Shown: positions 100-48,200 of the stretch, in pieces
Position numbering within the stretch: position 1 is the first letter of the stretch
Layout of the letters: each line of letters opens with the position of its first letter
Sequence record: NC_070987.1
Reading direction: 5' to 3' (one strand)
Length of the DNA: 64,000 nt
Source of the DNA: Escherichia phage MN05
Position numbers and translations under genes: made by a program
The notes under the pieces: model-generated
What the model saw: the letters and a program-made list of their open reading frames with translations, nothing else
Databases searched by the model: none
Told to the model about the DNA's origin: nothing

Positions 100-2343
100 A
101 TGGCTAAGCAAAAATATAGTGAAGAGGTGTTGGACGAGTTACGTGTTGACCTTCAACGTCGTTTTAATTACGCTCAAGGTTACGTTGACATGGCTGTTAA
201 GGGCTATGCTCGTGAAGCTTGGGAATATTTCTATGGTAACTTACCTGCACCAGTAACTGCTGGCAGCTCTAGTTGGGTAGATCGTACTGTTTGGGAATCT
301 GTTAACGGTACACTGCAAGATATTATTAACGTATTCTGTTCTGGTGATGAAGCGGTTACTTTCGTAGCTGACAACCAACAGGATTCTGATGCTGCTGATG
401 TAGCAACTAAATTAGTTAACCAAATTCTTCTGCGTGACAATCCGGGATACAACATTATCTCTTCTGCTGCACAAGAATGTCTGGTTACTCGTAACTCTTT
501 TATCAAGTATTATTGGGATGAACAAACTTCTACTCAAACTGAAGAAGCTGAAGGTGTACCACCGGAAGCGTTGGCTGCATATGTTCAGGGATTAGAAGCT
601 GGTGGACTCAAGAATCTGGAAATCTTCACTGAAGAAAATGAAGACGGTACAGTAGATGTTAAAGTTACTTACGAACAAACTGTTAAACGTGTGAAAGTTG
701 AATATGTTCCTTCAGAGCAAATCTTTGTTGATGAACATGCTACCTCTTTTGCAGATGCACAATATTTCTGCCATCGTGTACGTCGTTCTAAAGAAGATCT
801 GGTTGCTATGGGCTTCCCTAAAGATGAGATTGAAGCATTCAACGACTGGACAGACACGATGGATACTACTCAATCTACAGTTGCTTGGTCTCGTACTGAC
901 TGGCGTCAGGACATTGATGCCGATATTGGTGTCGACACTGAAGATATCTCTTCTATGGTTTGGGTTTATGAGCACTACATCCGTACTGGTGTTCTAGATA
1001 AGAATAAAGAGTCTAAACTCTATCAGGTTATTCAAGCTGGTGAGCATATACTTCACACTGAAGAAGTAACTCACATTCCGTTTGTAACCTTCTGTCCATA
1101 TCCGATTCCGGGTTCCTTCTATGGTCAATCTGTTTATGACATTACGAAAGATATTCAGGATTTACGCACCGCGCTAGTTCGTGGTTACATTGATAACGTC
1201 AACAATGCTAACTATGGTCGATACAAAGCTCTTGTTGGTGCATACGATCGTCGCTCTCTGCTTGATAACCGTCCCGGTGGAGTGGTTGAAATGGAACGTC
1301 AGGACGCTATTGACCTGTTCCCATACCATAACCTACCTCAAGGTATTGATGGCCTCCTAGGCATGTCTGAGGAGCTTAAAGAGACACGTACTGGTGTAAC
1401 CAAACTAGGCATGGGTATCAACCCTGACGTGTTTAAGAATGACAACGCTTATGCGACCGTAGGTTTGATGATGAATGCTGCACAGAACCGTCTCCGTATG
1501 GTATGTCGTAACATTGCTCATAATGGTATGGTTGAATTGATGCGTGGTATTTACAACCTTATCAGAGAAAATGGTGAAGTTCCTATCGAGGTACAAACCC
1601 CTCGTGGTATGATTCAGGTTAATCCGAAACAATTACCAGCTCGTCATAATCTTCAAGTTGTTGTAGCCATCTCTCCTAACGAGAAAGCAGAACGTGCACA
1701 GAAACTGATTAGCTTGAAACAGCTGATTGCAGCAGATGCACAGTTAGCACCTCTCTTTGGTTTGGAGCAAGACCGTTACATGACTGCACAGATTTTTGAG
1801 TTGATGGGTATTAAAGATACACATAAATACCTTCTGCCTCTGGAACAGTATCAGCCTCCAGAACCTTCTCCGATGGAAATCCTCCAGCTCGAGATGACTA
1901 AAGCACAGGTTGAGAACGTACAGGCTTCTTCTCAGAAGATGATTGCTGATGCATTCGACCAACGTGAACGTACTACATTCGAACAGCAGAAAGCTGCGGA
2001 TGAATTAAGTCTGCGTCAGGAAGAGTTGCAGTTCAAGCAAGAAAATGCAGCAGATGCAATGACTCTGGAAAACCGTAAAGAAGATAACAATGCTACTCTG
2101 GAACAAGCTAAGCACAAGTTAGCTCTTATGCAACAGCAGGTCCGTCAGTATGAATCCGTACTGAAAGAATTGCAGATGGTTATGGAACATCAGGTAGACC
2201 AAGAGAAGATTGTTCAGCAAACTCGTGTTCAGGATAAAACTTTGGAACTCCAAAAGAAAGAAGCTAATGTAACTAAGAAAGAGCAACAAGCTTCTCTCAA
2301 AGATTCACGGATTCCAGGCAAACGTCTTGGAAGTAAAAAGTAA
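100..2343 (+). CDS. portal (head-tail connector) protein, putative
   Basis: 747 aa ORF at head of structural module directly upstream of scaffold and capsid genes; C-terminal coiled-coil tail; no motif-level confirmation. Confidence 0.5.
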   Translation: MAKQKYSEEVLDELRVDLQRRFNYAQGYVDMAVKGYAREAWEYFYGNLPAPVTAGSSSWVDRTVWESVNGTLQDIINVFCSGDEAVTFVADNQQDSDAADVATKLVNQILLRDNPGYNIISSAAQECLVTRNSFIKYYWDEQTSTQTEEAEGVPPEALAAYVQGLEAGGLKNLEIFTEENEDGTVDVKVTYEQTVKRVKVEYVPSEQIFVDEHATSFADAQYFCHRVRRSKEDLVAMGFPKDEIEAFNDWTDTMDTTQSTVAWSRTDWRQDIDADIGVDTEDISSMVWVYEHYIRTGVLDKNKESKLYQVIQAGEHILHTEEVTHIPFVTFCPYPIPGSFYGQSVYDITKDIQDLRTALVRGYIDNVNNANYGRYKALVGAYDRRSLLDNRPGGVVEMERQDAIDLFPYHNLPQGIDGLLGMSEELKETRTGVTKLGMGINPDVFKNDNAYATVGLMMNAAQNRLRMVCRNIAHNGMVELMRGIYNLIRENGEVPIEVQTPRGMIQVNPKQLPARHNLQVVVAISPNEKAERAQKLISLKQLIAADAQLAPLFGLEQDRYMTAQIFELMGIKDTHKYLLPLEQYQPPEPSPMEILQLEMTKAQVENVQASSQKMIADAFDQRERTTFEQQKAADELSLRQEELQFKQENAADAMTLENRKEDNNATLEQAKHKLALMQQQVRQYESVLKELQMVMEHQVDQEKIVQQTRVQDKTLELQKKEANVTKKEQQASLKDSRIPGKRLGSKK

Positions 2344-2352
2344 GGACGTAGA

Positions 2353-2589
2353 ATGAACATTAGGCATCAATTCAATAAAGAGCACGCCGCCGCTTTGGCG
2401 GCTCTCAATCTTAACGGCAGTCTTGACGCAGCATTAGAGGCATTGAAAGAAAGACTCATGACAGAGATAGTTCAAACTGAACCTCATGAGAATAAGAAAC
2501 GCGAAGATTGTTATCAAAAGTATAAAATGGTTGGTAGCTTAAAAGAGGTCATAAAAGCTGCTATCAATAGTGCAGGAGATGTTTCATAA
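2353..2589 (+). CDS. hypothetical small protein
   Basis: 78 aa ORF between portal and scaffold genes, same strand, tight spacing. Confidence 0.3.
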   Translation: MNIRHQFNKEHAAALAALNLNGSLDAALEALKERLMTEIVQTEPHENKKREDCYQKYKMVGSLKEVIKAAINSAGDVS

Positions 2590-3674
2590 TGCCACAAGAT
2601 AATTATATTGACCCGAACGATTTTAAATCTTTCCTCCAACTGGATGACCTGAAAGGTTCTTTCAAAGAAGAACTCGGTCGATTAGAATCTGAACAAGAAC
2701 CAGAAGTGGACATTGACGATGAGTTCCCGGAACAAACCGGTGACGAATTTGACTTTGATACCGACCTTCTCGGTGAAAGCGATGTGCTTAAGTTCGAAGA
2801 TGAAGATGGTTGGGAAGATCATGATGAGGAAGGCGAAGTCGAAGAAGATGAGGACGACTCTGATGAAGGTGCTGAAGACACTGAAGTAGAAGAGGAAGAC
2901 TCAAGCGATGCAGGGTATGAAGATGATTCTGCTGACGGTGATGGTGAAGTCTTTGATGTAGACTACGAAACCGTTATCACCCTTCCTGATGGACGTGAGA
3001 TGACTATTGAAGAACTCTCCAATGGCTATCTTACTGGTGCTGATATGACAGAACGAGAAACAACTCTTCAGCGTCATATGGAAGCATTTGAGGAACGTGT
3101 AGTAGGTTTGAAGGATGTATTAGAATTAGCGTCTTTAGAAGCAGACCGAGTAATTGAAGATTACAACGGTTTTGATTGGGACAAGCTTGCAGTAGAAGAT
3201 CCTCAAGCATATGTTGAAAACAAACGTTTCCTAGAGAAGTACACAGCTCGTCGTAACCAGCTTGAACAGGCTCAGGCCCGTATTAAGCAGGAAGCAGCAG
3301 CTAAAGAGCAGGAAGCTTTCCAAGCCAAGAGCATTGAATGTGTTAATATTCTGAAACGTGAGATTCCAAATTGGGATGAAAACTTATATCAAAACTTAAT
3401 GCAATACGCAATTGACTTAGGTGCTACTGAAGAAGAAGTATTGAAGGAAAACCGTCCGTCTATTTTCCTAGCTCTCCATAAAGCATACCAATTTGATAAA
3501 GGTAAGCAACAGGTGATGGCTAAGATTAAACGTCCCGGTGCTCCACGCAAGGTTGTGAAGTCTGATGCTGCAAAGTCTCGCACTTCCAATAAGCCAGACA
3601 ACGCTAAGGTTGCCAAGGCATTCGCAGAGGGTCGCGTTAGTCACGAAGACGCATTCAAATTCCTCGTAGATTAA
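2589..3674 (+). CDS. scaffolding protein, putative
   Basis: 361 aa, strongly acidic D/E-rich N-terminal half and helical C-terminal half; positioned immediately before major capsid gene. Confidence 0.5.
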   Translation: MPQDNYIDPNDFKSFLQLDDLKGSFKEELGRLESEQEPEVDIDDEFPEQTGDEFDFDTDLLGESDVLKFEDEDGWEDHDEEGEVEEDEDDSDEGAEDTEVEEEDSSDAGYEDDSADGDGEVFDVDYETVITLPDGREMTIEELSNGYLTGADMTERETTLQRHMEAFEERVVGLKDVLELASLEADRVIEDYNGFDWDKLAVEDPQAYVENKRFLEKYTARRNQLEQAQARIKQEAAAKEQEAFQAKSIECVNILKREIPNWDENLYQNLMQYAIDLGATEEEVLKENRPSIFLALHKAYQFDKGKQQVMAKIKRPGAPRKVVKSDAAKSRTSNKPDNAKVAKAFAEGRVSHEDAFKFLVD

Positions 3675-3715
3675 TCGACAAATTAATTATTTAATAGTAT
3701 AGGAGCTAACATAAC

Positions 3716-4774
3716 ATGGCTAATCCAACTTTATTTGTATCGTATGACCAGAATGGTAAAAAACTTTCTTTTGCTAACTGGATTTCTGTTCTGTCCCCTC
3801 AGGATACCCCGTTCGTATCCATGACCGGTAAAGAGTCTATCAACCAGACTATCTTTAGCTGGCAGACCGATGCACTGGCAAGCGTTGACGCTAATAACGC
3901 ACACGTTGAAGGTTCTCGTGCGGTTGATGGTGAAATGCAACCTACCGTAATCAAATCCAACGTTACTCAGATTCTGCGTAAGGTTGTTAAAGTTTCTGAT
4001 ACCGCTAACACCACCGCTAACTACGGTCGTGGTCGTGAACTGATGTACCAGCTGGAGAAGAAAGGTAAAGAGATCAAACGTGACCTCGAGAAAATTCTTC
4101 TGTCCGGTCAGGCTCGTACCGACGTTCTGGCTGACCAGTACCTGACTAACTCTGCCGCTGACCCAGATCAGATTGGTAAGAACGACGCTCATGCAGCTCG
4201 TAAGACTGGTGCTTTCCAGTTCCTGTGTGCTCACGGTGGTCTGGCTGGCGGCGTTGTTGACAAGACCAAGAATGGTCCTGCTGACCCAGATACTGGTGCA
4301 GTAACTGTTAAGGTTGCACAGAACGCTTCTAACCCGGCTACTAACATCGGCTTTGATGAAGCAGATATCTTTGATATGACTCTGCAACTGTACACCGCTG
4401 GTTCTGAAGCAGATATCATCATGATTAACCCGGCTCATGCTAAAATCTTCGCTGGCCTGCAAGAGAACACTCAGGGTTCACGTAAACGTATCTTTGAGAA
4501 CACCAAGCAGTTCATCTACGAAGTTAACAGCATCACTGACCCGCTGGGCCAGAGCTACAAAATCATCGTTAACCGTTGGATGCCTACCGATGCAGTTTAC
4601 TTCTTCCGTAGCGCTGACTGGACCCAGATGGTTCTGCGTGCTCCGAAACGTACTGAACTGGCAAAAGATGGTTCTTACGAGAAGTGGATGATTGAGATGG
4701 AAGTTGGTCTGCGTCACCGCAACCCATATGCTTCCGGCGTTCTGTTCACTGCTGCGGGAAAGGCGGCGGCGTAA
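3716..4774 (+). CDS. major capsid protein
   Basis: 352 aa ORF with strong RBS (AGGAGC 7 nt upstream); position after scaffold; sequence character typical of HK97-fold capsid proteins. Confidence 0.65.
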   Translation: MANPTLFVSYDQNGKKLSFANWISVLSPQDTPFVSMTGKESINQTIFSWQTDALASVDANNAHVEGSRAVDGEMQPTVIKSNVTQILRKVVKVSDTANTTANYGRGRELMYQLEKKGKEIKRDLEKILLSGQARTDVLADQYLTNSAADPDQIGKNDAHAARKTGAFQFLCAHGGLAGGVVDKTKNGPADPDTGAVTVKVAQNASNPATNIGFDEADIFDMTLQLYTAGSEADIIMINPAHAKIFAGLQENTQGSRKRIFENTKQFIYEVNSITDPLGQSYKIIVNRWMPTDAVYFFRSADWTQMVLRAPKRTELAKDGSYEKWMIEMEVGLRHRNPYASGVLFTAAGKAAA

Positions 4775-5298
4775 CAGTAGACAGTGTGACTGTTAGCCCT
4801 GCGTCTTTAGCAAGTCTAGAGACAGGGGCTACTCGGCAGTTCACTGCAAGCGCGGAGAAAAGTGATGGTTCTACCGAAACAACTGGCTTTACTTGGTCAG
4901 TGACAGGAGGTGGTACTATCACTCAGTCGGGTTTGTATACTGCTCCGAGTGCGTCTCAATCCACTGATGTATCCATTACTGCAACTTTAGAAGGTGTTTC
5001 TGGTACAGCAACCATTTCTGAAATTGCTGACCCTGCTCCTACTATTGTAGCTAAGGGTCCAATTACTGGTAAAACTGGTGGTTCTTCCACTAACTTCACT
5101 ACCATGTTTACTGTAACTAATTCTGCTGCTGCGGATTACACGTTTGTTGTGATTCCTACAGAAGCCGGTACAGTAAGCGCCGCTGGTGCGTTAACCTTAG
5201 ATGCTACTGCAAGTGGCGAAGTTACTGTTCAAGCAAGTTTGACAGATGACCCGTCCATCAATGCAACATGCACTTTTACTGGTGTAACACCTGCTTAG
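4696..5298 (+). CDS. capsid C-terminal extension in -1 frame carrying a bacterial Ig-like (Big_2-type) domain
   Basis: -1 frame open across capsid 3' end; shifted reading gives ...AAG-K-GGG-VTVDSVTVSPASLASLETGATRQFTASA, a Gly linker followed by an Ig-like motif; listed ORF 4786..5298 starts at GTG without RBS. Confidence 0.5.
   Translation, partial: DGSWSASPQPICFRRSVHCCGKGGGVTVDSVTVSPASLASLETGATRQFTASAEKSDGSTETTGFTWSVTGGGTITQSGLYTAPSASQSTDVSITATLEGVSGTATISEIADPAPTIVAKGPITGKTGGSSTNFTTMFTVTNSAAADYTFVVIPTEAGTVSAAGALTLDATASGEVTVQASLTDDPSINATCTFTGVTPA
4756..4762 (+). other. putative -1 programmed ribosomal frameshift slippery heptamer G_GGA_AAG
   Basis: X_XXY_YYZ heptamer in capsid frame 12 nt before capsid stop; -1 frame is open from 4696 through 5298. 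Confidence 0.5.
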
Positions 5299-5305
5299 AA
5301 CTAGA

Positions 5306-5330
5306 CCCTGCCTTCGGGCGGGGTTTTTTC
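5306..5330 (+). terminator. rho-independent terminator
   Basis: CCCTGCC-ttcg-GGCGGGG hairpin (one G-U pair) followed by TTTTTT. Confidence 0.7.
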
Positions 5331-5334
5331 GTTT

Positions 5335-5366
5335 TAAGACCTATACAAGCCAGTGTGTAATGTATA
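5335..5366 (+). promoter_or_regulatory. putative late promoter (TAAGACCTA-N14-TAATGTATA)
   Basis: two-element motif identical in architecture to the site at 22433-22464; lies about 34 nt upstream of the ATG at 5400. Confidence 0.5.
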
Positions 5367-5399
5367 TTCTTTGTCTACATATAACAAGGAGGACAACCT

Positions 5400-6152
5400 A
5401 TGGCAATGCCAGATGTTCAATACCCCATCAATACCTATGGGTGGCTAAAGAAGGCCGTGGCCCTCTGGGCAGATAGGGACGATGACGAATTTGTTAATCA
5501 AATTCCAAACTTTATTAACTTTGCAGAGAAAGAGATTTATCGTAACTTACGTATCCCCCCTCTGGAAAAAGAAGTGTATTTAGATATCAAAGATGGAGTG
5601 GCTTATATTCCTCCTGATTACTTAGAAGCTCAATGGATGATGAGAGCCAAAGATGGTACAATCTTCCAAGTAACATCTCCTGAAGAGATTAGCTATCGTA
5701 GACAGCATGGAACAATTAACCCATCTCACTGGAATAACCAACCTGTTAACTTTGCTCGTTTCGGTAGTCGTTTCATTTTCTATCCTAGTATTGAAGCAGA
5801 TACTCCGTACTATCCTGATGATGGAAGTCCTTTGATTCCAGCAGAAAACTCAGTAATTCTTAGCTATTATGCAGACCCACCGGAATTCCACGAAGATACA
5901 GATACCAGTGCTATCCTTACTATTGCACCAGAACTTCTTCTGTATTTCACTCTACGTCATGCTTGCTTGTTTGTTCAAGATGATAATGGAGTTCAGAAAT
6001 GGTCTGCATTAGGAAAAGCTATCCTTGATGAAATGGTAGAGCAGAATAAGAAACAAGAGTACTCAGGTTCACCTATCGCAATTCCGAATAACATGACTCG
6101 ACTTCAGAGCAGCTTGCCTGATATTTATGGTATTCGTACTTCTCGTGTATAA
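5400..6152 (+). CDS. virion structural protein (adaptor/tail component), putative
   Basis: 250 aa ORF with strong RBS AAGGAGG; located between capsid and tail fiber genes. Confidence 0.35.
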   Translation: MAMPDVQYPINTYGWLKKAVALWADRDDDEFVNQIPNFINFAEKEIYRNLRIPPLEKEVYLDIKDGVAYIPPDYLEAQWMMRAKDGTIFQVTSPEEISYRRQHGTINPSHWNNQPVNFARFGSRFIFYPSIEADTPYYPDDGSPLIPAENSVILSYYADPPEFHEDTDTSAILTIAPELLLYFTLRHACLFVQDDNGVQKWSALGKAILDEMVEQNKKQEYSGSPIAIPNNMTRLQSSLPDIYGIRTSRV

Positions 6153-6161
6153 GGAGATAAT

Positions 6162-8942
6162 ATGATCGTTTATAATAACCAAGCACCTGATGCAGTGAAT
6201 AACGTTGGGCAGTTTGGTGCTACGGAAGGCTCTATTGGAGCTTACAAGCAAGCAGCAGAATATGCAGCTGACTCTAAATATTGGGCACTGCTAGCGGAGT
6301 CTAAGTTTGGCACAATTGATGACTTGATCGCTGAAGTAGAACGTCTGTATCAACAAGGTGTTCTGATGAAGCAGGATATTGAAGATCTTAAGCAGGATTT
6401 TATAGATCAAGATGCTCGTTTGATGACTCTAATTGCTCAAACTAACGCAGCGGTCTCTGATGCTAATAACGCTGTTGCTCTCATTAATCAGAAGCTCATT
6501 GAAGTCCAGAAACAGCTTGATGTTCTGTTGGGAATGTCTGTTGATGTAACTACCCTTCCTCCGGGAACTCCAGCTACTGGTTCTTTTAATCCGAGCACTG
6601 GTGTAATCTCTTTAGGTATTCCGGAAGGGGATCCCGGAAAGGATGGCTCTGTTAAGGATTTGGATACAGCACCTACCGGTGTTCCAGAGTTAGGCGACTT
6701 AGGTTTCTACGTTGACAAAGATGACAATACTGTCCACAAAACTACTCTAGAGAACATTGCTAACTTAATCCCATCTGTTCGTTCTATTTCTGTTAACGAA
6801 GGTCCAGCTCTTGATGGAGAAGTTGCTCTGACAATCAACAAGAATACAGTTGGTTTAGGGAACGTTCTGAACGTTGCTCAATATAGCCGTCAAGAGATTA
6901 ACGATAAGTTTGATAAAACTACCAAGACATACCAATCAAAAGCAGAGGCAGATGCTGATGCTCAGTATCGTCAAGTTGGGGAGCAGGTCTTGGTTTGGGA
7001 AGCTACTAAGTATGAATTTTACACTGTTGCTGCTAACAAAACACTAACCCCTGTTAAGACTGAAGGTAGAATCCTTACTGTCAACTCTCGTTCTCCAGAC
7101 TCAAGCGGTAACATTGATATCACTATTCCAACAGGGAACCCGTCTCTGTATCTTGGTGAGATGGTAATGTTTCCTTATGACCCAACGAAGAATATCTCAT
7201 ATCCGGGGGTTCTTCCTGCTGACGGTCGTTTGGTGTCTAAAGAGTCTGCTCTAGATTTAGGCCCATCACTTGTTAGTGGTCAGCTTCCTGTGGTCTCTGA
7301 AACAGAATGGCAGGCTGGTGCTCGTCAGTATTTCTCTTGGGGTAAGTTATCAGATGGAGTCACTGATGCAGATTCTACTAACTTCATCAGCATTCGACTT
7401 CCCGACTGGACTGGCGGGGAGGCTATTAGATCCCCTGATTCAGATAAGGATGCTAACTACAAGGGTCGTGTTCAGTCTCAGATTCCTTACATCGTAACCG
7501 TAAATGGAAAAGCTCCTGACGACGCTAACGGAAACGTTGTCATAACCGCTGCTAGTTTGGGTGCGGCTGCATCAGGGGCGAACTCTGATATAACTTCTTT
7601 AAATGGACTCACCACTCCCTTATCCCCACAACAAGGGGGCACAGGGGCTAATAGTATTGAAGGTGCTCGTTCAAACTTAGGAATTGATAGAATAAAGAAT
7701 GACTCCACACAAACCACAGTAGGTTCAGCAGACGGAAGAGCCCTTCTTACCATAACTAACAATCCTGAAGATTGGGGTGTGCTTTGGTGGAATGGCTCTG
7801 GTTATGAAACAAAACCTCTTAGTGTAAGCAAAGGTGGAACAGGATCCACTACGGCTGCCGGGGCTAGGGCAAACCTGAATATTGAGAGATTCCAGCAAGA
7901 TGCTGGTTGGACTCTTATGTATTCACCGGACAATACTAGACGTTTATATGTGGACAATAAAGGAGGTTCTTGGGGTTGTCAGAACGTAGAGGATGGCGGA
8001 TCTTTGGCCCTAGCTGTAGCGCAAGGTGGGACAGGAGCTACTACAGATGCGGCAGCACGTGTTAACCTAAAAGTTGATAAACTTGTCCAAAGTTCAACTG
8101 ACACTAAACTCTTAGATGGATCAGGAGAGCATACGTTCTTTATTACAGATGCTGATTGGGGGTATTTCAATAATTCTGACTCTTCTCGAATTGCTTTGCC
8201 AATAATTAGTGGTGGTACAGGTGGTAAAACACCTGCTGAAGCCTCTGAAAAACTAGCAGCAATGCATTGTCAGTATGGTGCATCAACTTACTACGGTAGT
8301 GGAGATTTACCAACTGGTGTTGGGTTCTATAGCCTAGACACATCACCGTTTCCGGGAGGTAATGGTGCACCCTTCACATATGCAGAGATAATGACTATTG
8401 CTGAAGGTGGTCGTGGAGGTAACTGGTCCCAAATAGGGTTCTCTACTATCACGTATGAAGCCCCTCGCTACAGACAAAGGACTAGTGACCCGTCTTTAAT
8501 CACAAACTGGAGAGATTTCTTAGTAAGAGATTTAAACACGACTGTAGATCCTAATGGTTTTGTTAAAATTGCATCACCTATAGTCAAACTAAAATCTGAC
8601 GGTTCTTCTGAAGTTAATGACCAAGCCCAAGGAGTAACAACCGAAAGATTAGATGTTGGTGTTTACAAGATATCCGGGACTTTAGGGTTTAACTCAGATG
8701 CATCTTGGGGCGGTATCGGAGGTGGTTTTTCTATTCCGCAAAACTCTAATGGTTTACCTCTTCTTTGGGTTGACTATGAAGTTGATGAAGAAGGTGATAT
8801 TACTCTGAAAACTTACCATCGAACTCATGAGGGAGTCCCTTCTTTTGCCAGTAATGTAATAGAGGGTGTGGCAGACGGGGAACCTATCGATATTCCTGTT
8901 GGAAGATGGGTTGACCTTCGTGTTGAGATGCCTTCTAAATGA
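6162..8942 (+). CDS. tail fiber protein with tandem phage tail-fibre repeats
   Basis: 926 aa; at least four copies of the GGTG-x(6-8)-AR-x-NL motif (e.g. LSPQQGGTGANSIEGARSNLGI, LSVSKGGTGSTTAAGARANLNI, LAVAQGGTGATTDAAARVNLKV). Confidence 0.55.
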   Translation: MIVYNNQAPDAVNNVGQFGATEGSIGAYKQAAEYAADSKYWALLAESKFGTIDDLIAEVERLYQQGVLMKQDIEDLKQDFIDQDARLMTLIAQTNAAVSDANNAVALINQKLIEVQKQLDVLLGMSVDVTTLPPGTPATGSFNPSTGVISLGIPEGDPGKDGSVKDLDTAPTGVPELGDLGFYVDKDDNTVHKTTLENIANLIPSVRSISVNEGPALDGEVALTINKNTVGLGNVLNVAQYSRQEINDKFDKTTKTYQSKAEADADAQYRQVGEQVLVWEATKYEFYTVAANKTLTPVKTEGRILTVNSRSPDSSGNIDITIPTGNPSLYLGEMVMFPYDPTKNISYPGVLPADGRLVSKESALDLGPSLVSGQLPVVSETEWQAGARQYFSWGKLSDGVTDADSTNFISIRLPDWTGGEAIRSPDSDKDANYKGRVQSQIPYIVTVNGKAPDDANGNVVITAASLGAAASGANSDITSLNGLTTPLSPQQGGTGANSIEGARSNLGIDRIKNDSTQTTVGSADGRALLTITNNPEDWGVLWWNGSGYETKPLSVSKGGTGSTTAAGARANLNIERFQQDAGWTLMYSPDNTRRLYVDNKGGSWGCQNVEDGGSLALAVAQGGTGATTDAAARVNLKVDKLVQSSTDTKLLDGSGEHTFFITDADWGYFNNSDSSRIALPIISGGTGGKTPAEASEKLAAMHCQYGASTYYGSGDLPTGVGFYSLDTSPFPGGNGAPFTYAEIMTIAEGGRGGNWSQIGFSTITYEAPRYRQRTSDPSLITNWRDFLVRDLNTTVDPNGFVKIASPIVKLKSDGSSEVNDQAQGVTTERLDVGVYKISGTLGFNSDASWGGIGGGFSIPQNSNGLPLLWVDYEVDEEGDITLKTYHRTHEGVPSFASNVIEGVADGEPIDIPVGRWVDLRVEMPSK
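7555..8265 (+). repeat. in-frame coding repeats (tail fibre repeat units) within tail fiber gene
   Basis: recurring protein-level motif x-GGTG-...-AR-x-NL about every 60-70 codons; coordinates approximate. Confidence 0.45.
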
Positions 8943-8951
8943 AACAAGAAT

Positions 8952-8970
8952 GCTCCCTTCGGGGAGCTTT
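8952..8970 (+). terminator. terminator-like hairpin (weak U-tract)
   Basis: GCTCCC-ttcg-GGGAGC hairpin followed by TTT, then RBS of next gene. Confidence 0.4.
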
Positions 8971-8982
8971 AAGGAGAAATAA

Positions 8983-11181
8983 ATGTCTAGAGAATTAATG
9001 CCCAAATCTGGCATAATGATGCCTCACGTAGTTGTGACCAGAGATGCGGCTGTTGTTGGTGTTTCTACCGTAGACGGACAGGCAGGGGCTATTGACCTCA
9101 CTGGAAAGTATCTACAGAAAACCGACGCAGCTGCTACCTATCAAACTAAAACAGAGGGTGCATCTAAAGATTTTGTGCTGGATTCAATTCAACCTATTAT
9201 GTCTGGTGCTTTGTTCCGAGCAGACCCTTGGGTTGTGAATGATACACCTTTCCGTTCTACTGGAGCTAATGGTGTAGAGTCAGTTGATATGATGAAAGTT
9301 ACTACTGACAACTCAATCAAGATTGGCAGTTATGCTTCCTCAGTTCAGGGTGTAGAGATTCACTCTGCTGGTCGTCTTCAAGTAGTAGACCAGAACGACT
9401 CCGGAGTAGAAACTAAATACCCTGTGTATTCTAAACGATATCGTCCTGAGATTGAGGATTTGCCTTTTGCTGCAATTGGTTCTTATGTCAAAGATTCTAA
9501 GGGTCGTACTATTGGTGTAAACCGTACCGGTATCAACTCCGATATCAAACAACTCACCCAGAAAGTAACCTTTACCCAACCTGTTACTGTACCAGATGGT
9601 GTTGGGGACTACGATGCTGTGACAGTGAGACAACTCCGAAATAGTGGCGGCAGTGGTGGCGGTGCCTCCATGAGTGGGGTGATGAATAACTTTATCGGTG
9701 CGGTGGAGTGGTGGCAGGGATCAAGAGTCAAGTTGCCGGCTGGGTATGTCGCTGCTGATGGTCAACTATTGACTCGTACCGATTACCCTGACTTGTGGGC
9801 TGCTGTAGATGCTGGGTTGTTGATGTCTATTGACGAGACGGGCTGGCTGAACACTGTCGGGGTTAAGTTCCTCCACAGGGCTAAATACTCGACCGGGGAT
9901 GGGTCGACGAACTTCCGCGTTCCTGATTTGAACGGGGTTCAGACCGATTCTCTGAGTCGGATCTTCTTGTCAGGCTCAAGTGGAAAGTCGACGGATTGGT
10001 CTGTTGATGGGGTTGCGGGGGTCGTTGCCCCCCAATCTGCACCGAATATCACCGGGAATTTTTATACTCACGGTTCGAATGCGGATGCGATAGATGCCAA
10101 TGGGGCCTTTAAGCTGGGCTCGATGGATACAGGTAGCTCATTCACCGCCGGAGGCACGGAGAGGGGCGACCAGATATCATTTAGTGCAAAATCCTCCAAT
10201 GACACCTACGGCAAGCTGGGTAACTCTCTCGCTCCGAACCACGCAGGTGGCATTTGGATCATCCGAGCCTCTGGTGGATTTACTGCTGCTAACACGTCTT
10301 GGTCTGTTATTAACAGTGACGCCTCAGAACCTCCTAGCGGTACTCCTATTACTGGTGGATTGGTTTCTTCTAAATATGTAGTTGGAGGTGTTGATAAATA
10401 TCGGTCTTCTATCCAATTGCAAGGGTCTAATGAAGTTGATTTATCAACTAGAATTACCACGATAAACGATAGATATTCCATCGGGGCTGCAACTTGGGAT
10501 TTTAAATTAGATGGTAAACTTCTTTTCAACAAAAGCCTGACTCCTAATGGAACAGGATACTCTCCGGGTAATACCTATCTAACTTTAGCTAACACTTGGA
10601 TGTCCTCTGGATATTCAGGGTACATAGGTTTTATAGGTGGTGGGGTTGGGGTTTCTAATGGTGGTTGGAGAAACTTTATTTCCTTAGGCTCTCTAATCTT
10701 CCCAGACTCCAGTCACCCAACTGCTATTATTTCTCAGGTTTACGACTATGACCTTCCTACAGGAAACCAGCCTAATGGAGATATTGTCAGAAACACCTCT
10801 TTCAATGCGGAGAGCTATGATATCACTTTTGGAAACAACAGTGGGACTACCAATTACATCTTCAGTAAGTCTCCAGTCTCTGACGAACGGCTAAAACATA
10901 GCATTAAGGAAGAAGGGACAGCCACAGCTCTTTCTAACTTAAACAAGATGGAGTATAAAACCTTTATCTATAATTATGATGAGAAAGCAACTGTAAGGCG
11001 TGGGTTTATTGCCCAACAACTTGAAGCTATTGACCCTCAATATGTTAGGAAGTATAAAACCTTCAAAGGTACTGATACCCTAGCTTTAGATGAGAATGTG
11101 TTGCTTTTAGATGCAATTGCTGCTATTCAAGAGCTTACCAAAAAGGTTGAGGTTTTAGAAGCAAAATTGTCAGAGAAGTAA
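8983..11181 (+). CDS. tail fiber/spike protein with C-terminal intramolecular chaperone (S74-type) domain
   Basis: 732 aa; C-terminal SDERLKHSIKEE...GFIAQQLEAIDPQYV matches the autoproteolytic chaperone signature of phage fibers/spikes; Gly-rich central region. Confidence 0.6.
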   Translation: MSRELMPKSGIMMPHVVVTRDAAVVGVSTVDGQAGAIDLTGKYLQKTDAAATYQTKTEGASKDFVLDSIQPIMSGALFRADPWVVNDTPFRSTGANGVESVDMMKVTTDNSIKIGSYASSVQGVEIHSAGRLQVVDQNDSGVETKYPVYSKRYRPEIEDLPFAAIGSYVKDSKGRTIGVNRTGINSDIKQLTQKVTFTQPVTVPDGVGDYDAVTVRQLRNSGGSGGGASMSGVMNNFIGAVEWWQGSRVKLPAGYVAADGQLLTRTDYPDLWAAVDAGLLMSIDETGWLNTVGVKFLHRAKYSTGDGSTNFRVPDLNGVQTDSLSRIFLSGSSGKSTDWSVDGVAGVVAPQSAPNITGNFYTHGSNADAIDANGAFKLGSMDTGSSFTAGGTERGDQISFSAKSSNDTYGKLGNSLAPNHAGGIWIIRASGGFTAANTSWSVINSDASEPPSGTPITGGLVSSKYVVGGVDKYRSSIQLQGSNEVDLSTRITTINDRYSIGAATWDFKLDGKLLFNKSLTPNGTGYSPGNTYLTLANTWMSSGYSGYIGFIGGGVGVSNGGWRNFISLGSLIFPDSSHPTAIISQVYDYDLPTGNQPNGDIVRNTSFNAESYDITFGNNSGTTNYIFSKSPVSDERLKHSIKEEGTATALSNLNKMEYKTFIYNYDEKATVRRGFIAQQLEAIDPQYVRKYKTFKGTDTLALDENVLLLDAIAAIQELTKKVEVLEAKLSEK

Positions 11182-20761: not shown

Positions 20762-22435
20762 ATGCAACAGACAACTTATGCTCAGGTCAGAAGTCGTGAC
20801 CCGAGAAATACTTTCTATGGTGTTAATCCGGGAGCGGCTTCGGCCTCTCCTTACATGGCTAGACCCATTCAGACAGCAGATGTTTCTATGTACCAACGTC
20901 CTGCTGTACCTGCTGGACTTTCCCGTCTTGTAGGTCAAACTTCAGTGGATTATCAGAATATGCTGAACCCTGTTCAGAGTAATGGACTTCCTTCTGATAT
21001 TCCTAATGACGTACAACCTCAAGCACAACAAGCTGTAACTCTTCCTGAGCCTAATAATCAAGAAACTGTGCAAGATGCCGGACCTTCTCCTTCTTCTGTT
21101 CCTCAAGAATCGGAGCCTCTTCCGGTGACGCCTCCGACTAAGCCTCTCGAAGATGGTCCTACAGAGTTTACTCCTTCTCAAGTAGAGCAGGCACAAGGTG
21201 TTGTTACCACTCTTGCTCAAAGTCAGGACACTGGTGAAGGCATGGCTGGGGCTACTCGTGCAAAAGATCAAGAACGTGTTAACTCTGATATCATGCAGAT
21301 TGCAAAAGCTAAAGACCCTTCAGAGGCTTGGAATAAGTTACAGAAAGAGCCGTTCTACCAGAACTCTAGTTTCTACACAGGCTTAATGGGTGTAGGTCTT
21401 TCAATCATGTCAGGTAAGTCTCCGATTGAAGCTTTCCAAATTGGTCAAGGTATGGCTAACCAAGATGAGACTAAGAAACAACTAGAAGCTAACCGTGATG
21501 CATTGGTTGAACAAGGTTTCTCTCAAGACTCTATTGCTGCTGCTATCGCAAGCGGAGACCCTTCTCTTCTGAAGATGAGAGCTAAAGACCCTCTTCAACA
21601 GGAAGCTTTATACGCTGAGCGTGAGAGACGCCAGAATGCTGAGTGGGATAGACGTCAAGCTATCAATGAAGAATCTGCTGAGAGAAATCGTAAGGCTACT
21701 TGGGAAAACCAATTAGCTCTGGCAGAAGCCCGTGGTGAGATTGTTCGTGACAACCTTTTGTTCAAGAATGAACACAGTGTTCGTAAAACATCTCCCAAGT
21801 GGGAAAAATCAGAAGAACTTGGTGGTATTACCCCTAACTTCCGAGATAAGTTACAGCAATCTTATCGTCCTGTTATTAATGTCCTAGCTTCTCGAAACAA
21901 GTGGATGGCTCCTACAGAAGCTGCTATTTCTAAACTAGGAACTGGTTCAAACTCTCAAGAGAGTGCAGCTCAGCAACGTGCTGCTATTGAGAACTTGACT
22001 AAACTTATTCAAGGTGGTTTAGCTTCCATTAATGGAGAGGTAATGAATGAGCTTACAGGTGATCCAGATTGGGTTAACAACAAGTTGAATAAGATTCAGA
22101 TGATGGCAGGTCAAGGTCCGACCGAAGCAAATATCAAATGGCTTAAAGCACTAGGTACAGAGATTCAAGAAATCGATAAAGAGGCAACTAAATATCAAGT
22201 AGCCCCTCTAGTGGAATCTTTGATTCTTGACAGTGGTTTAGCTCCTGATAATGCTATCAAAGCTGCTAACTCTATTTTTGCTCCTGGCTCTGTTCGACTT
22301 ACTACTGAAGAGTTTAAAGAATGGTCTCGTGGACATAGTAAAGTTCATGATAAAACATTCCCTGATGATAAGCCCTCTAAATTGAAGGGTGGTGCTTTAT
22401 CTGATTCTTCAGATACTAGCTGGTTCACTAAGTAA
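20762..22435 (+). CDS. internal virion protein, hypothetical
   Basis: 557 aa ORF; Pro/Gln-rich N-terminal region; within internal-protein cluster. Confidence 0.35.
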   Translation: MQQTTYAQVRSRDPRNTFYGVNPGAASASPYMARPIQTADVSMYQRPAVPAGLSRLVGQTSVDYQNMLNPVQSNGLPSDIPNDVQPQAQQAVTLPEPNNQETVQDAGPSPSSVPQESEPLPVTPPTKPLEDGPTEFTPSQVEQAQGVVTTLAQSQDTGEGMAGATRAKDQERVNSDIMQIAKAKDPSEAWNKLQKEPFYQNSSFYTGLMGVGLSIMSGKSPIEAFQIGQGMANQDETKKQLEANRDALVEQGFSQDSIAAAIASGDPSLLKMRAKDPLQQEALYAERERRQNAEWDRRQAINEESAERNRKATWENQLALAEARGEIVRDNLLFKNEHSVRKTSPKWEKSEELGGITPNFRDKLQQSYRPVINVLASRNKWMAPTEAAISKLGTGSNSQESAAQQRAAIENLTKLIQGGLASINGEVMNELTGDPDWVNNKLNKIQMMAGQGPTEANIKWLKALGTEIQEIDKEATKYQVAPLVESLILDSGLAPDNAIKAANSIFAPGSVRLTTEEFKEWSRGHSKVHDKTFPDDKPSKLKGGALSDSSDTSWFTK

Positions 22436-46416: not shown

Positions 46417-48200
46417 GGTGAAGCTCCATCTGCTTGGTTGACGAGAGAAGCTGCATCCTCTCCGTTAGTTAAAACGAATGGATTATCTTCATCAACTTCA
46501 AAGTCTTCCCTTTCTACAAGTCTCCCGGTTTCACTGATATACTTAGTATAACAGACACCTGTCTGACCGTAGTTACGTTCTTTCAGTAATCTAATGACTG
46601 AGAGGTTCTTAGCTAAGCCGTCAGCTTGCTTGTCACGCTCAAAGCCAATGATACACTGACACCAACGCATAAGAGAACGAGAGCCAGTGAACTGTACTTC
46701 ACGTACCTGTCCACCTTCTTCATGAGGAGCACCACCTGCCGGAGCATTAAGGTGAGATAGAACGAAAGCGGTAAAGTCTAACTCTTTACACATACCAGCA
46801 AGCTCGGAAGCGATCTTACTGATTTCAGTGTTAATCTCTGAAGGTGTTAAATGAGATACCAGAGCGGTAATGTTATCAAGGATGATGAACTTACACTGGT
46901 TTTCAACTACCCAGAAACGGATACACTGTTTAATGTCTTCCCATTCGTTCTGCCCAAAGTTGTCATATAAGAAGAACTTATCTGCATAACGAAGTGCTTC
47001 ATTACGCAAATCCTCCTCATCATATTCAACATCAGGTCGGTGGAAAGGAATTGATGCTGACTTACCAGCAATGTTCTTAACAGACATGCCTACCTTCTCT
47101 TCCAAGAAGAAGCCACCTCCATTAAAACCATGCTCTAAGCACAGATGAGCAACTAGCTCGTGAGCAATGAGTGTTTTACCACTCCCTACTCCACCACCAA
47201 TTGCTACCACCTCTCCCCATCGAATACCGAAGGTCATCTCATTCAGAGTCTTCCACGGATATGGGATACCCCACTCCGCTTTCTTCAGAGCATCATCAAG
47301 GCAATCAAAGATTGTTACAGCACCAGCAGGAGATTCCCGCTTTGCTGAATACTTGAGAATGTTGAATAACTCTTGACCACGACCAGACAGAAGCATGTCA
47401 TTCGCATCCTTAATCTCTTTCTCCACACCGTTGTATGGGAAAGTTCCTTTAGGAATACGAGCAAACTTGACATGAGGGAATAAAGAACGACCTTTTGTTA
47501 AAGCTATCTCACCTGCATCATCGTTGTCCATGCAGAGCACAACCTCCTCAAAACCATTTACGAAGTCTCGATTACGAGACAACACAGAAGAGATTGAACC
47601 TGCACCGAACGGTAAAGAAACACATGCTGGTTTAATGTTTGTTGCATTTGTAAAAGCTGTAAGGACATGGAAACCTGACATACAGGATAGCGGGTCTTCA
47701 AAAATGAAGAGCTTCTTGTTGTACACATCTCCACGTTGAGCTTGTGCCATACCGAATAAATCTGCTTCTTTCACACTGCCGACGTAATAGAACTTCTTAC
47801 TATCTAGCAGCTTAACCTCGTATCCGACAATGTTTCCATCACGTTCACGAGGAAAGAAGTAACTGTCTGGTGTCTGACCATCAGTTTGACTGAGGCCAAT
47901 ACGACACTCAAAACGCTCTGATACGGCTTTAGGGATTAAACGTCGAGTAAGTTCGCCCTGAGGAAGCTCTAAGCAATCATCTAAGACTTCTCTTAACTCT
48001 TCAGGGGATAACTCTTTCTTCTCGTTTGGAGTAGGTGTAGTGCCCTTTTCGAACACTTCGTAATTCCCACAACGGTTACAACTCCCCCACTCCTCACCTG
48101 TCTCTTCGTTACGGAAGAGAATCATGTGGTTGTGGGTTTTATCACGACCATGAGAGATACATTCCTTACAACCTGTGTCTCCCAAAATGATCTTTGACAT
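46410..48200 (-). CDS. primase-helicase (T7 gp4-like)
   Basis: 596 aa; N-terminal Cys4 zinc-binding region, central primase-like region, helicase Walker [10 protein letters not shown] and Walker [11 protein letters not shown]. Confidence 0.8.

Follow-up and report, generated by a model that had tools for sequence, protein, structure and literature searches.

Slippery Heptamer at the End of the Capsid Gene of Escherichia Phage MN05 Very Probably Yields a Minor Capsid Isoform with Immunoglobulin-like Domains

Major Capsid Protein Gene and Its Slippery Heptamer

In this work, we analysed a stretch of 64,000 nucleotides (nt) from Escherichia phage MN05 (NC_070987.1; the whole stretch is referred to below as the window), with the focus on the gene for the major capsid protein and on the open reading frame (ORF) for immunoglobulin (Ig)-like domains that overlaps its end in the −1 frame. 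The window represents a Kuravirus, i.e., a phiEco32/SU10-like phage, with ~95–96% DNA identity to many deposited genomes; over 3716–5400, dozens of E. coli podophages from this phiEco32/SU10-like genus share 95–96.5% identity with it, and E. coli is a host of relatives of this phage. A preliminary description of the same DNA had drawn a comparison with T7-like phages, which has to be replaced by this assignment. All features lie on the plus strand unless indicated otherwise.

The ORF at 3716–4774 encodes the short form of the major capsid protein (352 amino acids (aa), 38.6 kDa) with the HK97 fold. It matches the Pfam family SU10_MCP (PF17236, E 8.7e-77), and its residues 1–352 align with the SU10 gp9 major head protein solved by cryo-electron microscopy (cryo-EM; PDB 7z45, E 6e-230). 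Within the 20 nt inspected upstream of the ATG at 3716, there is a Shine-Dalgarno (SD) core AGGAG (3701–3705), which would be the sole ribosome entry site for both capsid isoforms considered here. The gene ends with GCT GCG GGA AAG GCG GCG GCG TAA, so that it bears the slippery heptamer G_GGA_AAG at 4756–4762 in the 0-frame X_XXY_YYZ register (GGA 4757–4759, AAG 4760–4762). The proposal of a slippery heptamer at this position close to the capsid stop was borne out: the site is in register and is separated by three sense codons, all for Ala, from the TAA at 4772–4774, which terminates the short form and would be bypassed after the shift. In E. coli, G_GGA_AAG is classed as a highly shift-prone sequence (PMC5009743); it is the lambda G/GT site, where ~96% of the ribosomes keep the frame, giving a ratio of ~96:4 (PMC3296357).

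The codon choice at the site is unusual for this gene. Its 25 Gly codons comprise 18 GGT, 6 GGC, a single GGA and no GGG, the lone GGA being that of the heptamer; in a strongly codon-biased gene, this is the outcome that selection for slipperiness would give. As a sequence, GGGAAAG is under-represented in the window (3 copies observed vs. 7.5 expected), and the other two copies, at 20918–20924 (minus strand) and 47437–47443 (plus strand), are both antisense to the local genes. By itself, the heptamer is thus not unusual. What goes beyond chance is its register combined with the position three codons before the stop, the 178-codon open −1 frame with folded Ig domains, and the strict conservation described below.

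The same outcome at the protein level, i.e., two products, one of them shifted to the −1 frame, could arise if RNA polymerase rather than the ribosome changed the frame. Transcriptional slippage needs long homopolymer runs, typically of at least six A or T, whereas the site here has only G3 and A3. Moreover, the motif is a classic heptamer for tandem tRNA slippage, whose action on the ribosome was shown in the case of lambda G/GT (PMC5009743, PMC3296357). We therefore regard the slippage of RNA polymerase as scarcely credible.

Open −1 Frame and the Predicted Extension

The −1 frame is closed by the TGA at 4693–4695, is open from 4696 and ends at the TAG 5296–5298, exactly as had been supposed. 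Entered at the heptamer, it encodes a C-terminal extension of 178 aa (4762–5298 with the stop codon), whose translation is 94–97% identical to the Ig ORF of phiEco32 and other Kuraviruses (94% in the case of the phiEco32 Ig ORF, gp12). The predicted −1 product reads ...FTAAGK-GGG-VTVDSVTVSPASLASLETGATRQFTA... and combines 349 capsid residues with 178 new ones to give 527 aa (55.7 kDa). The predicted junction of this long form reads ...TAAGKGGGVTVD..., and its tryptic peptide GGGVTVDSVTVSPASLASLETGATR is encoded in the −1 frame 5′ of the GTG at 4786, the first candidate start codon discussed below. The first three −1 codons (4762–4770) specify a Gly-Gly-Gly linker, which is replaced in the relatives by GGS, GSGG or GSSG through 3-nt indels.

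The linker is followed by an Ig-like domain 1 (4777–5010), which matches Pfam Big_2 with a marginal pass (23.6 bits vs. the cutoff of 22.8, E 5e-5), and by an Ig-like β-sandwich domain 2 (5035–5295), which has no Pfam match and comprises the strands from E94–97 to E167–176 in an AlphaFold2 model. The preliminary description was thus right about the glycine linker and the Big_2-type motif, but it counted one Ig-like domain where there are two. The AlphaFold2 model of the extension, built on a 17-sequence alignment, has a mean predicted local distance difference test score of 96.6 and shows two β-sandwich (Ig-like) domains, the strands of domain 1 extending from E6–12 to E79–85. The best PDB match found by Foldseek is the tandem Big domains of Leptospira LigA (8gyr, E 5e-11), with adhesins, S-layer proteins and the phage Hoc protein among the lower matches. 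The motif KGPITGKxGGSxTxFTTMFTxTNS... of domain 2 is conserved, and phages Paul and YF01 contain it in tandem copies.

Conservation of the Heptamer and of the Frame Relationship

We compared the Kuravirus loci of ShigP1, phiEco32, SU10, Paul, SGF2, DE5, SDYTW1 and the IMG/VR loci L004–L008 (L numbers denote loci of our comparison), as well as those of Nieuwekanaalvirus EP335, Suseptimavirus EK010 and Bas87, and Proteus phage Privateer. In 15 related loci from four genera (Kuravirus, Nieuwekanaalvirus, Suseptimavirus and Privateervirus), the heptamer does not vary. It is kept even in Privateer, the capsid protein of which is 57% identical, at another distance from the stop codon, which there follows immediately. 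The length of the linker differs between the relatives by 3-nt indels only, and therefore the relationship of the two frames is retained. All the other 14 Kuravirus-like loci that we examined keep the −1 frame open; the deposited SU10 sequence is the sole exception, to which we return below.

Start Codons, Transcript and Selection in the −1 Frame

If the Ig region were a separate gene, it could be translated by termination–reinitiation, from the TAA 4772–4774 to the GTG at 4786 located 11 nt further on; the product would be a free decoration protein of 170 aa, attached to the capsid by non-covalent binding. The GTG is indeed in the right frame and near the stop codon, most GenBank records list a distinct "Ig domain containing protein", and the authors of the SU10 cryo-EM study considered that gp10 may be a minor capsid protein that was lost on purification (PMC9509320). 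However, the start signals expected for such a gene are missing. There is no ATG nearby in the −1 frame, and the only candidate starts within its first 100 codons are GTG 4786, GTG 4900 and TTG 4933. None of the three is preceded by an SD core, whereas all eight neighbouring genes have one of 4–8 nt; the absence of a ribosome binding site in front of the GTG of the listed downstream ORF had been correctly pointed out in the preliminary description.

Nor is any start position conserved. The codon corresponding to GTG 4786 is ATA or GTA in 8 of the 11 distinct relatives, the first possible start in many of them is residue 16 or 34 of the extension, i.e., within Ig domain 1, and Privateer has no start codon at all among 60 extension codons. 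The starts assigned by gene callers to the "Ig protein" are scattered accordingly, giving products of 110–254 aa, many of which begin inside Ig domain 1. Furthermore, the first β-strand (extension residues 6–12) and the conserved VTVD residues start 5′ of GTG 4786 (residue 9), which, according to the model, would be a small point against this start. A separate gene would also leave unexplained both the invariant in-register heptamer and the unique GGA codon. Taken together, these data make independent initiation of an Ig protein very unlikely. They agree with the proposal that the extension is expressed only as a capsid fusion, which is supported by the conserved heptamer in register, the lack of a conserved start or SD sequence, the purifying selection in the −1 frame described below and the restriction of linker indels to 3 nt.

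No promoter-like or terminator site was found between the capsid stop codon and the extension, so the two share one transcript; a strong intrinsic terminator (5303–5336) lies directly after the extension stop.

Another possibility is that the extension is not expressed in MN05 and is a decaying remnant, as it seems to be in the deposited SU10 sequence, where a 1-nt insertion closes the −1 frame and the capsid shows no extra density. The codons of the extension are in fact far less optimised than those of the capsid gene: CTG accounts for 0 of 7 vs. 18 of 22 Leu codons, and ACA for 10 of 37 vs. 0 of 26 Thr codons. Such poor optimisation would nevertheless be expected if the extension were translated at a few percent of the capsid level, and the codon usage fits either a low-level product or horizontal acquisition. 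In the window, the frame is intact over 178 codons, and its predicted fold is very confident. In the −1 frame, the extension evolves under purifying selection: the ratio of non-synonymous to synonymous substitution rates (omega) is 0.58 for L008 and 0.23–0.36 for the other six of the seven pairs, compared with 0.05–0.11 in the capsid body. With the frame also open in the other Kuravirus-like loci, we consider decay in MN05 extremely unlikely.

The extension and the capsid gene differ in their divergence. In L004 and Paul, the synonymous divergence (dS) is 1.1–1.5 in the extension vs. 0.16–0.20 in the capsid gene, and the number of Ig domains differs between close relatives: there are two in the window, while the extension reaches ~545 aa in Paul and YF01 with domain 2 repeated. 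The dS contrast and the varying domain number imply an exchange of modules with a breakpoint near the frameshift junction.

Proposed Mechanism and Points That Weigh against It

With the site, the two frames, their conservation, the selection, the fold and the lack of any other start established by the analysis, a heptamer-driven −1 ribosomal frameshift very probably yields a minor capsid–Ig isoform. In this mechanism, one mRNA with a single ribosome entry site (AGGAG 3701–3705, ATG 3716) would give rise to two capsid proteins. Most ribosomes would read GGA-AAG-GCG-GCG-GCG and stop at TAA 4772, releasing the 352-aa capsid protein, while a minority would slip one base back with the Gly- and Lys-tRNAs on GGA and AAG, re-pairing with GGG and AAA. 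The slipped ribosomes would then translate the Gly3 linker and the two tandem Ig-like β-sandwich domains in the −1 frame and terminate at TAG 5296. Through its HK97-fold body, the 527-aa product would be incorporated into the prolate capsid together with the short form, its Ig domains facing outside; if the efficiency were ~4%, as in lambda G/GT, ~20–30 of about 715 subunits would be long. In this way, the long isoform would put exchangeable Ig-like modules on the capsid surface, which bears on adherence to mucus or cell surfaces and on display scaffolds. On the surface, the Ig domains may play a weak role in adhesion.

Several points weigh against this reading, and they concern RNA structure, the direct experimental record and phage SU10. 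The preliminary description had called for RNA structure prediction downstream of the heptamer. A candidate hairpin (GGC-G-UAACAGU / ACUGUUA-GCC, 4768–4798; −18.1 kcal/mol) begins 5 nt past the heptamer, a spacing that suits a stimulator. Its core of 7 bp (UAACAGU/ACUGUUA, 4772–4778 with 4789–4795) is invariant while the loop is variable, and the hairpin is pairable in all relatives (96% of cells, 11 distinct sequences; 10 of 14 pairs never vary). The presence of a pairable structure was thus confirmed, but its z-score is only −1.6, no both-side (compensatory) change was found among the relatives, and shuffled sequences score equally well. The z-scores of single-sequence folds are weak in general (−1.0 to −2.0), the synonymous variation after the heptamer is not suppressed (0.29 vs. 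0.33), and a search of Rfam gave no meaningful match for the region. The invariant 7-bp hairpin at 4772–4795 might nonetheless be a real stimulator. The lambda G/GT heptamer was reportedly found by Levin et al. in 1993 to give ~4% frameshifting without a strong stimulator, so that an element of this kind would not be an absolute requirement.

The remaining structural candidates were less suitable. A second hairpin (CUGCUGC/GCGGCGG, 4749–4769), mutually exclusive with the first one, encloses the heptamer and was pointed out by Mirzaei et al. (PMC4281155). It is pairable in ~95% of cells in the 11 sequences, shows no compensatory change and scores the same as shuffled controls; as a downstream roadblock, it is ruled out by the fact that a ribosome on the heptamer would have melted it. 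In Privateer (L015, 3939–3969), the heptamer can likewise occupy the loop of a 7-bp hairpin (GGCUGGU...GCCAGCC), which may be a coincidence or a common feature. A long hairpin ~20 nt downstream, suggested by the alignment fold and having some double changes in the apical stem, was not adopted, as it lies far from the site and inside the coding sequence. No SD-like sequence was found upstream of the heptamer.

As to the experimental record, slippage in MN05 itself and its low efficiency are inferred here, the relevant experiments having been performed on relatives. Those on SU10 are contradictory. For this phage, Mirzaei et al. (2014) described a GGGAAAG slippage site "as in phage phiEco32" and listed forms of 38.5 and 55.4 kDa in their proteomics (PMC4281155). 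In the paper on YF01, two capsid isoforms are described for "YF01 and other group phages", while the SU10 −1 frame is said to end early and SU10 gave no long band on SDS-polyacrylamide gel electrophoresis (PMC9965538). The cryo-EM structure of SU10 shows 715 uniform capsid subunits, and the density of the Ig protein is absent (PMC9509320). In the deposited SU10 sequence (L002, KM044272, ~2565–2575), a 1-nt insertion located 24 nt past the heptamer closes the −1 frame after 11 codons, and a capsid without Ig density fits this loss of the frame. Because the frame is closed in SU10, the long form can be lost without killing the phage, so that the "9+10" entry in the proteomics of SU10 is not decisive. 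This suggests that the extension is dispensable in culture, as the phage whose deposited sequence has lost it was propagated and examined by cryo-EM. The insertion puts the Ig domains into the capsid 0 frame, behind TAA-CAG-TAG, and is not easily reconciled with the listing of a 55.4-kDa "9+10" product in the proteomics table of SU10 (PMC4281155).

Relation to Known Systems

The capsid frameshift is not a new finding, since it has already been published for the phiEco32/SU10-like group, and it opens no new question because the literature already covers both the mechanism and its presence in these phages. The long capsid form of Privateer was detected in virions by liquid chromatography–tandem mass spectrometry, and the feature was called conserved among phiEco32-like phages (PMC7881722). 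The joined coding sequence in the GenBank record of phage Paul (MN045231) bears the note "Frameshift at GGGAAAG". More generally, Ig-like C-terminal extensions acquired by phage structural proteins via frameshifting have been reviewed (PMC5009743). The value of the present result is in annotation: in most deposited genomes of the group, the Ig region is entered as a gene of its own whose start codon is arbitrary, and the window merits a joined capsid coding sequence.

The closest systems are phiEco32 gp11/gp12, SU10, Paul and YF01, which share with the window the same gene, the same heptamer and its position before the stop codon, with 95–98% identity in the capsid protein and 94–97% in the extension. 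The differences from these Kuravirus-like relatives are only matters of detail: the window has the GGG linker and two Ig domains, the extension is longer in Paul and YF01, and the frame is broken in SU10. Privateer resembles the window in the capsid family, in the heptamer and in a −1 extension with Ig domains (I-set and Big_2), but it belongs to the family Grimontviridae, its stop codon directly follows the heptamer instead of being three codons away, and its Ig types are different.

The lambda G/GT system has an identical G_GGA_AAG, the same host, a stop codon a short way downstream and a long product made at a low, fixed ratio to the short one; however, it concerns a tail assembly chaperone rather than a capsid protein, and the proteins are unrelated. 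Genes 10A/10B of the podophages T3/T7 resemble the window: a −1 shift towards the end of the gene for the major capsid protein produces a longer subunit as a minor species, and the unit is followed by a terminator. In T3, the capsid extension is Ig-like (PMC5009743). The T3/T7 system differs from the window in the heptamer, which in T7 is of the G_GUU_UUC type, and in the capsid sequence family, which is other than SU10_MCP; the extension of T7 is not Ig-like.

Gene Neighbourhood

The gene order at 100–9000 is portal (Pfam SU10_portal), a small ORF, scaffold, the major capsid protein (SU10_MCP), the Ig-like ORF, adaptor (SU10_adaptor) and tail fibres. It matches that of the phiEco32 group; in the window, the extension is followed by the terminator and then by the SU10_adaptor gene at 5400. 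The single tRNA gene found, tRNA-Arg(TCT) at 62778–62853 (minus strand), does not decode the slippery codons.

Ig-Tagged Capsids in the SU10_MCP Family

The mildly new material of this study is only comparative and lies outside the window. We tentatively suggest that there may be at least four routes by which capsid proteins of the SU10_MCP family came to include a minority of Ig-tagged subunits, although this broader picture is rather doubtful. The first of them is the heptamer G_GGA_AAG in Kuravirus and Privateer. The second is seen in L014 (IMGVR_UViG_3300033688_000038, ~3921–4055), an uncultured and divergent relative: an in-register A_AAA_AAG lies two codons ahead of its capsid stop, and the −1 extension is only ~42 aa long.

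The third route concerns the Aeromonas Lahexavirus-type loci L009–L012 and L017 (~3900–4430 in locus coordinates). Their capsid genes end with ...CTG AAG GTA AAG (GCG or CCC) TAA and have no XXXYYYZ heptamer, and the −1 frame is open for 87–168 aa past the capsid stop, encoding Big_2 or I-set Ig domains. These features suggest an unannotated, non-canonical −1 site G_GUA_AAG. In the case of LAh_9, GenBank lists a separate short ORF.

The fourth route is gene duplication followed by in-frame fusion, as in Salmonella phage 7-11 and Aeromonas phage BUCT695, where the capsid genes are duplicated and the long copy bears Big_2 fused in frame. Just as proposed for the window, these phages combine a short capsid protein of the same family with a long one having C-terminal Big_2 domains, but their long form is encoded by a separate paralogous gene and involves no frameshift. 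Two to four capsid paralogues are found in related prolate podophages, namely, in L016 (7-11) at 1982–4758, in L018 (BUCT695) at 3001–5281 and in L019 (APT65) at 1069–5263; the 428-aa capsid paralogue of APT65 matches SU10_MCP only and gives no match to Big_2.

The covalent capsid–Ig fusion is the functional unit in the SU10_MCP family. Along with 7-11 and BUCT695, it is found in metagenomic proteins: P0057 is a single ORF with SU10_MCP and Big_2, and P0020 and P0069 are single ORFs in which a homologue of domain 2 (65% and 60% identity, respectively) is fused to a divergent capsid body.

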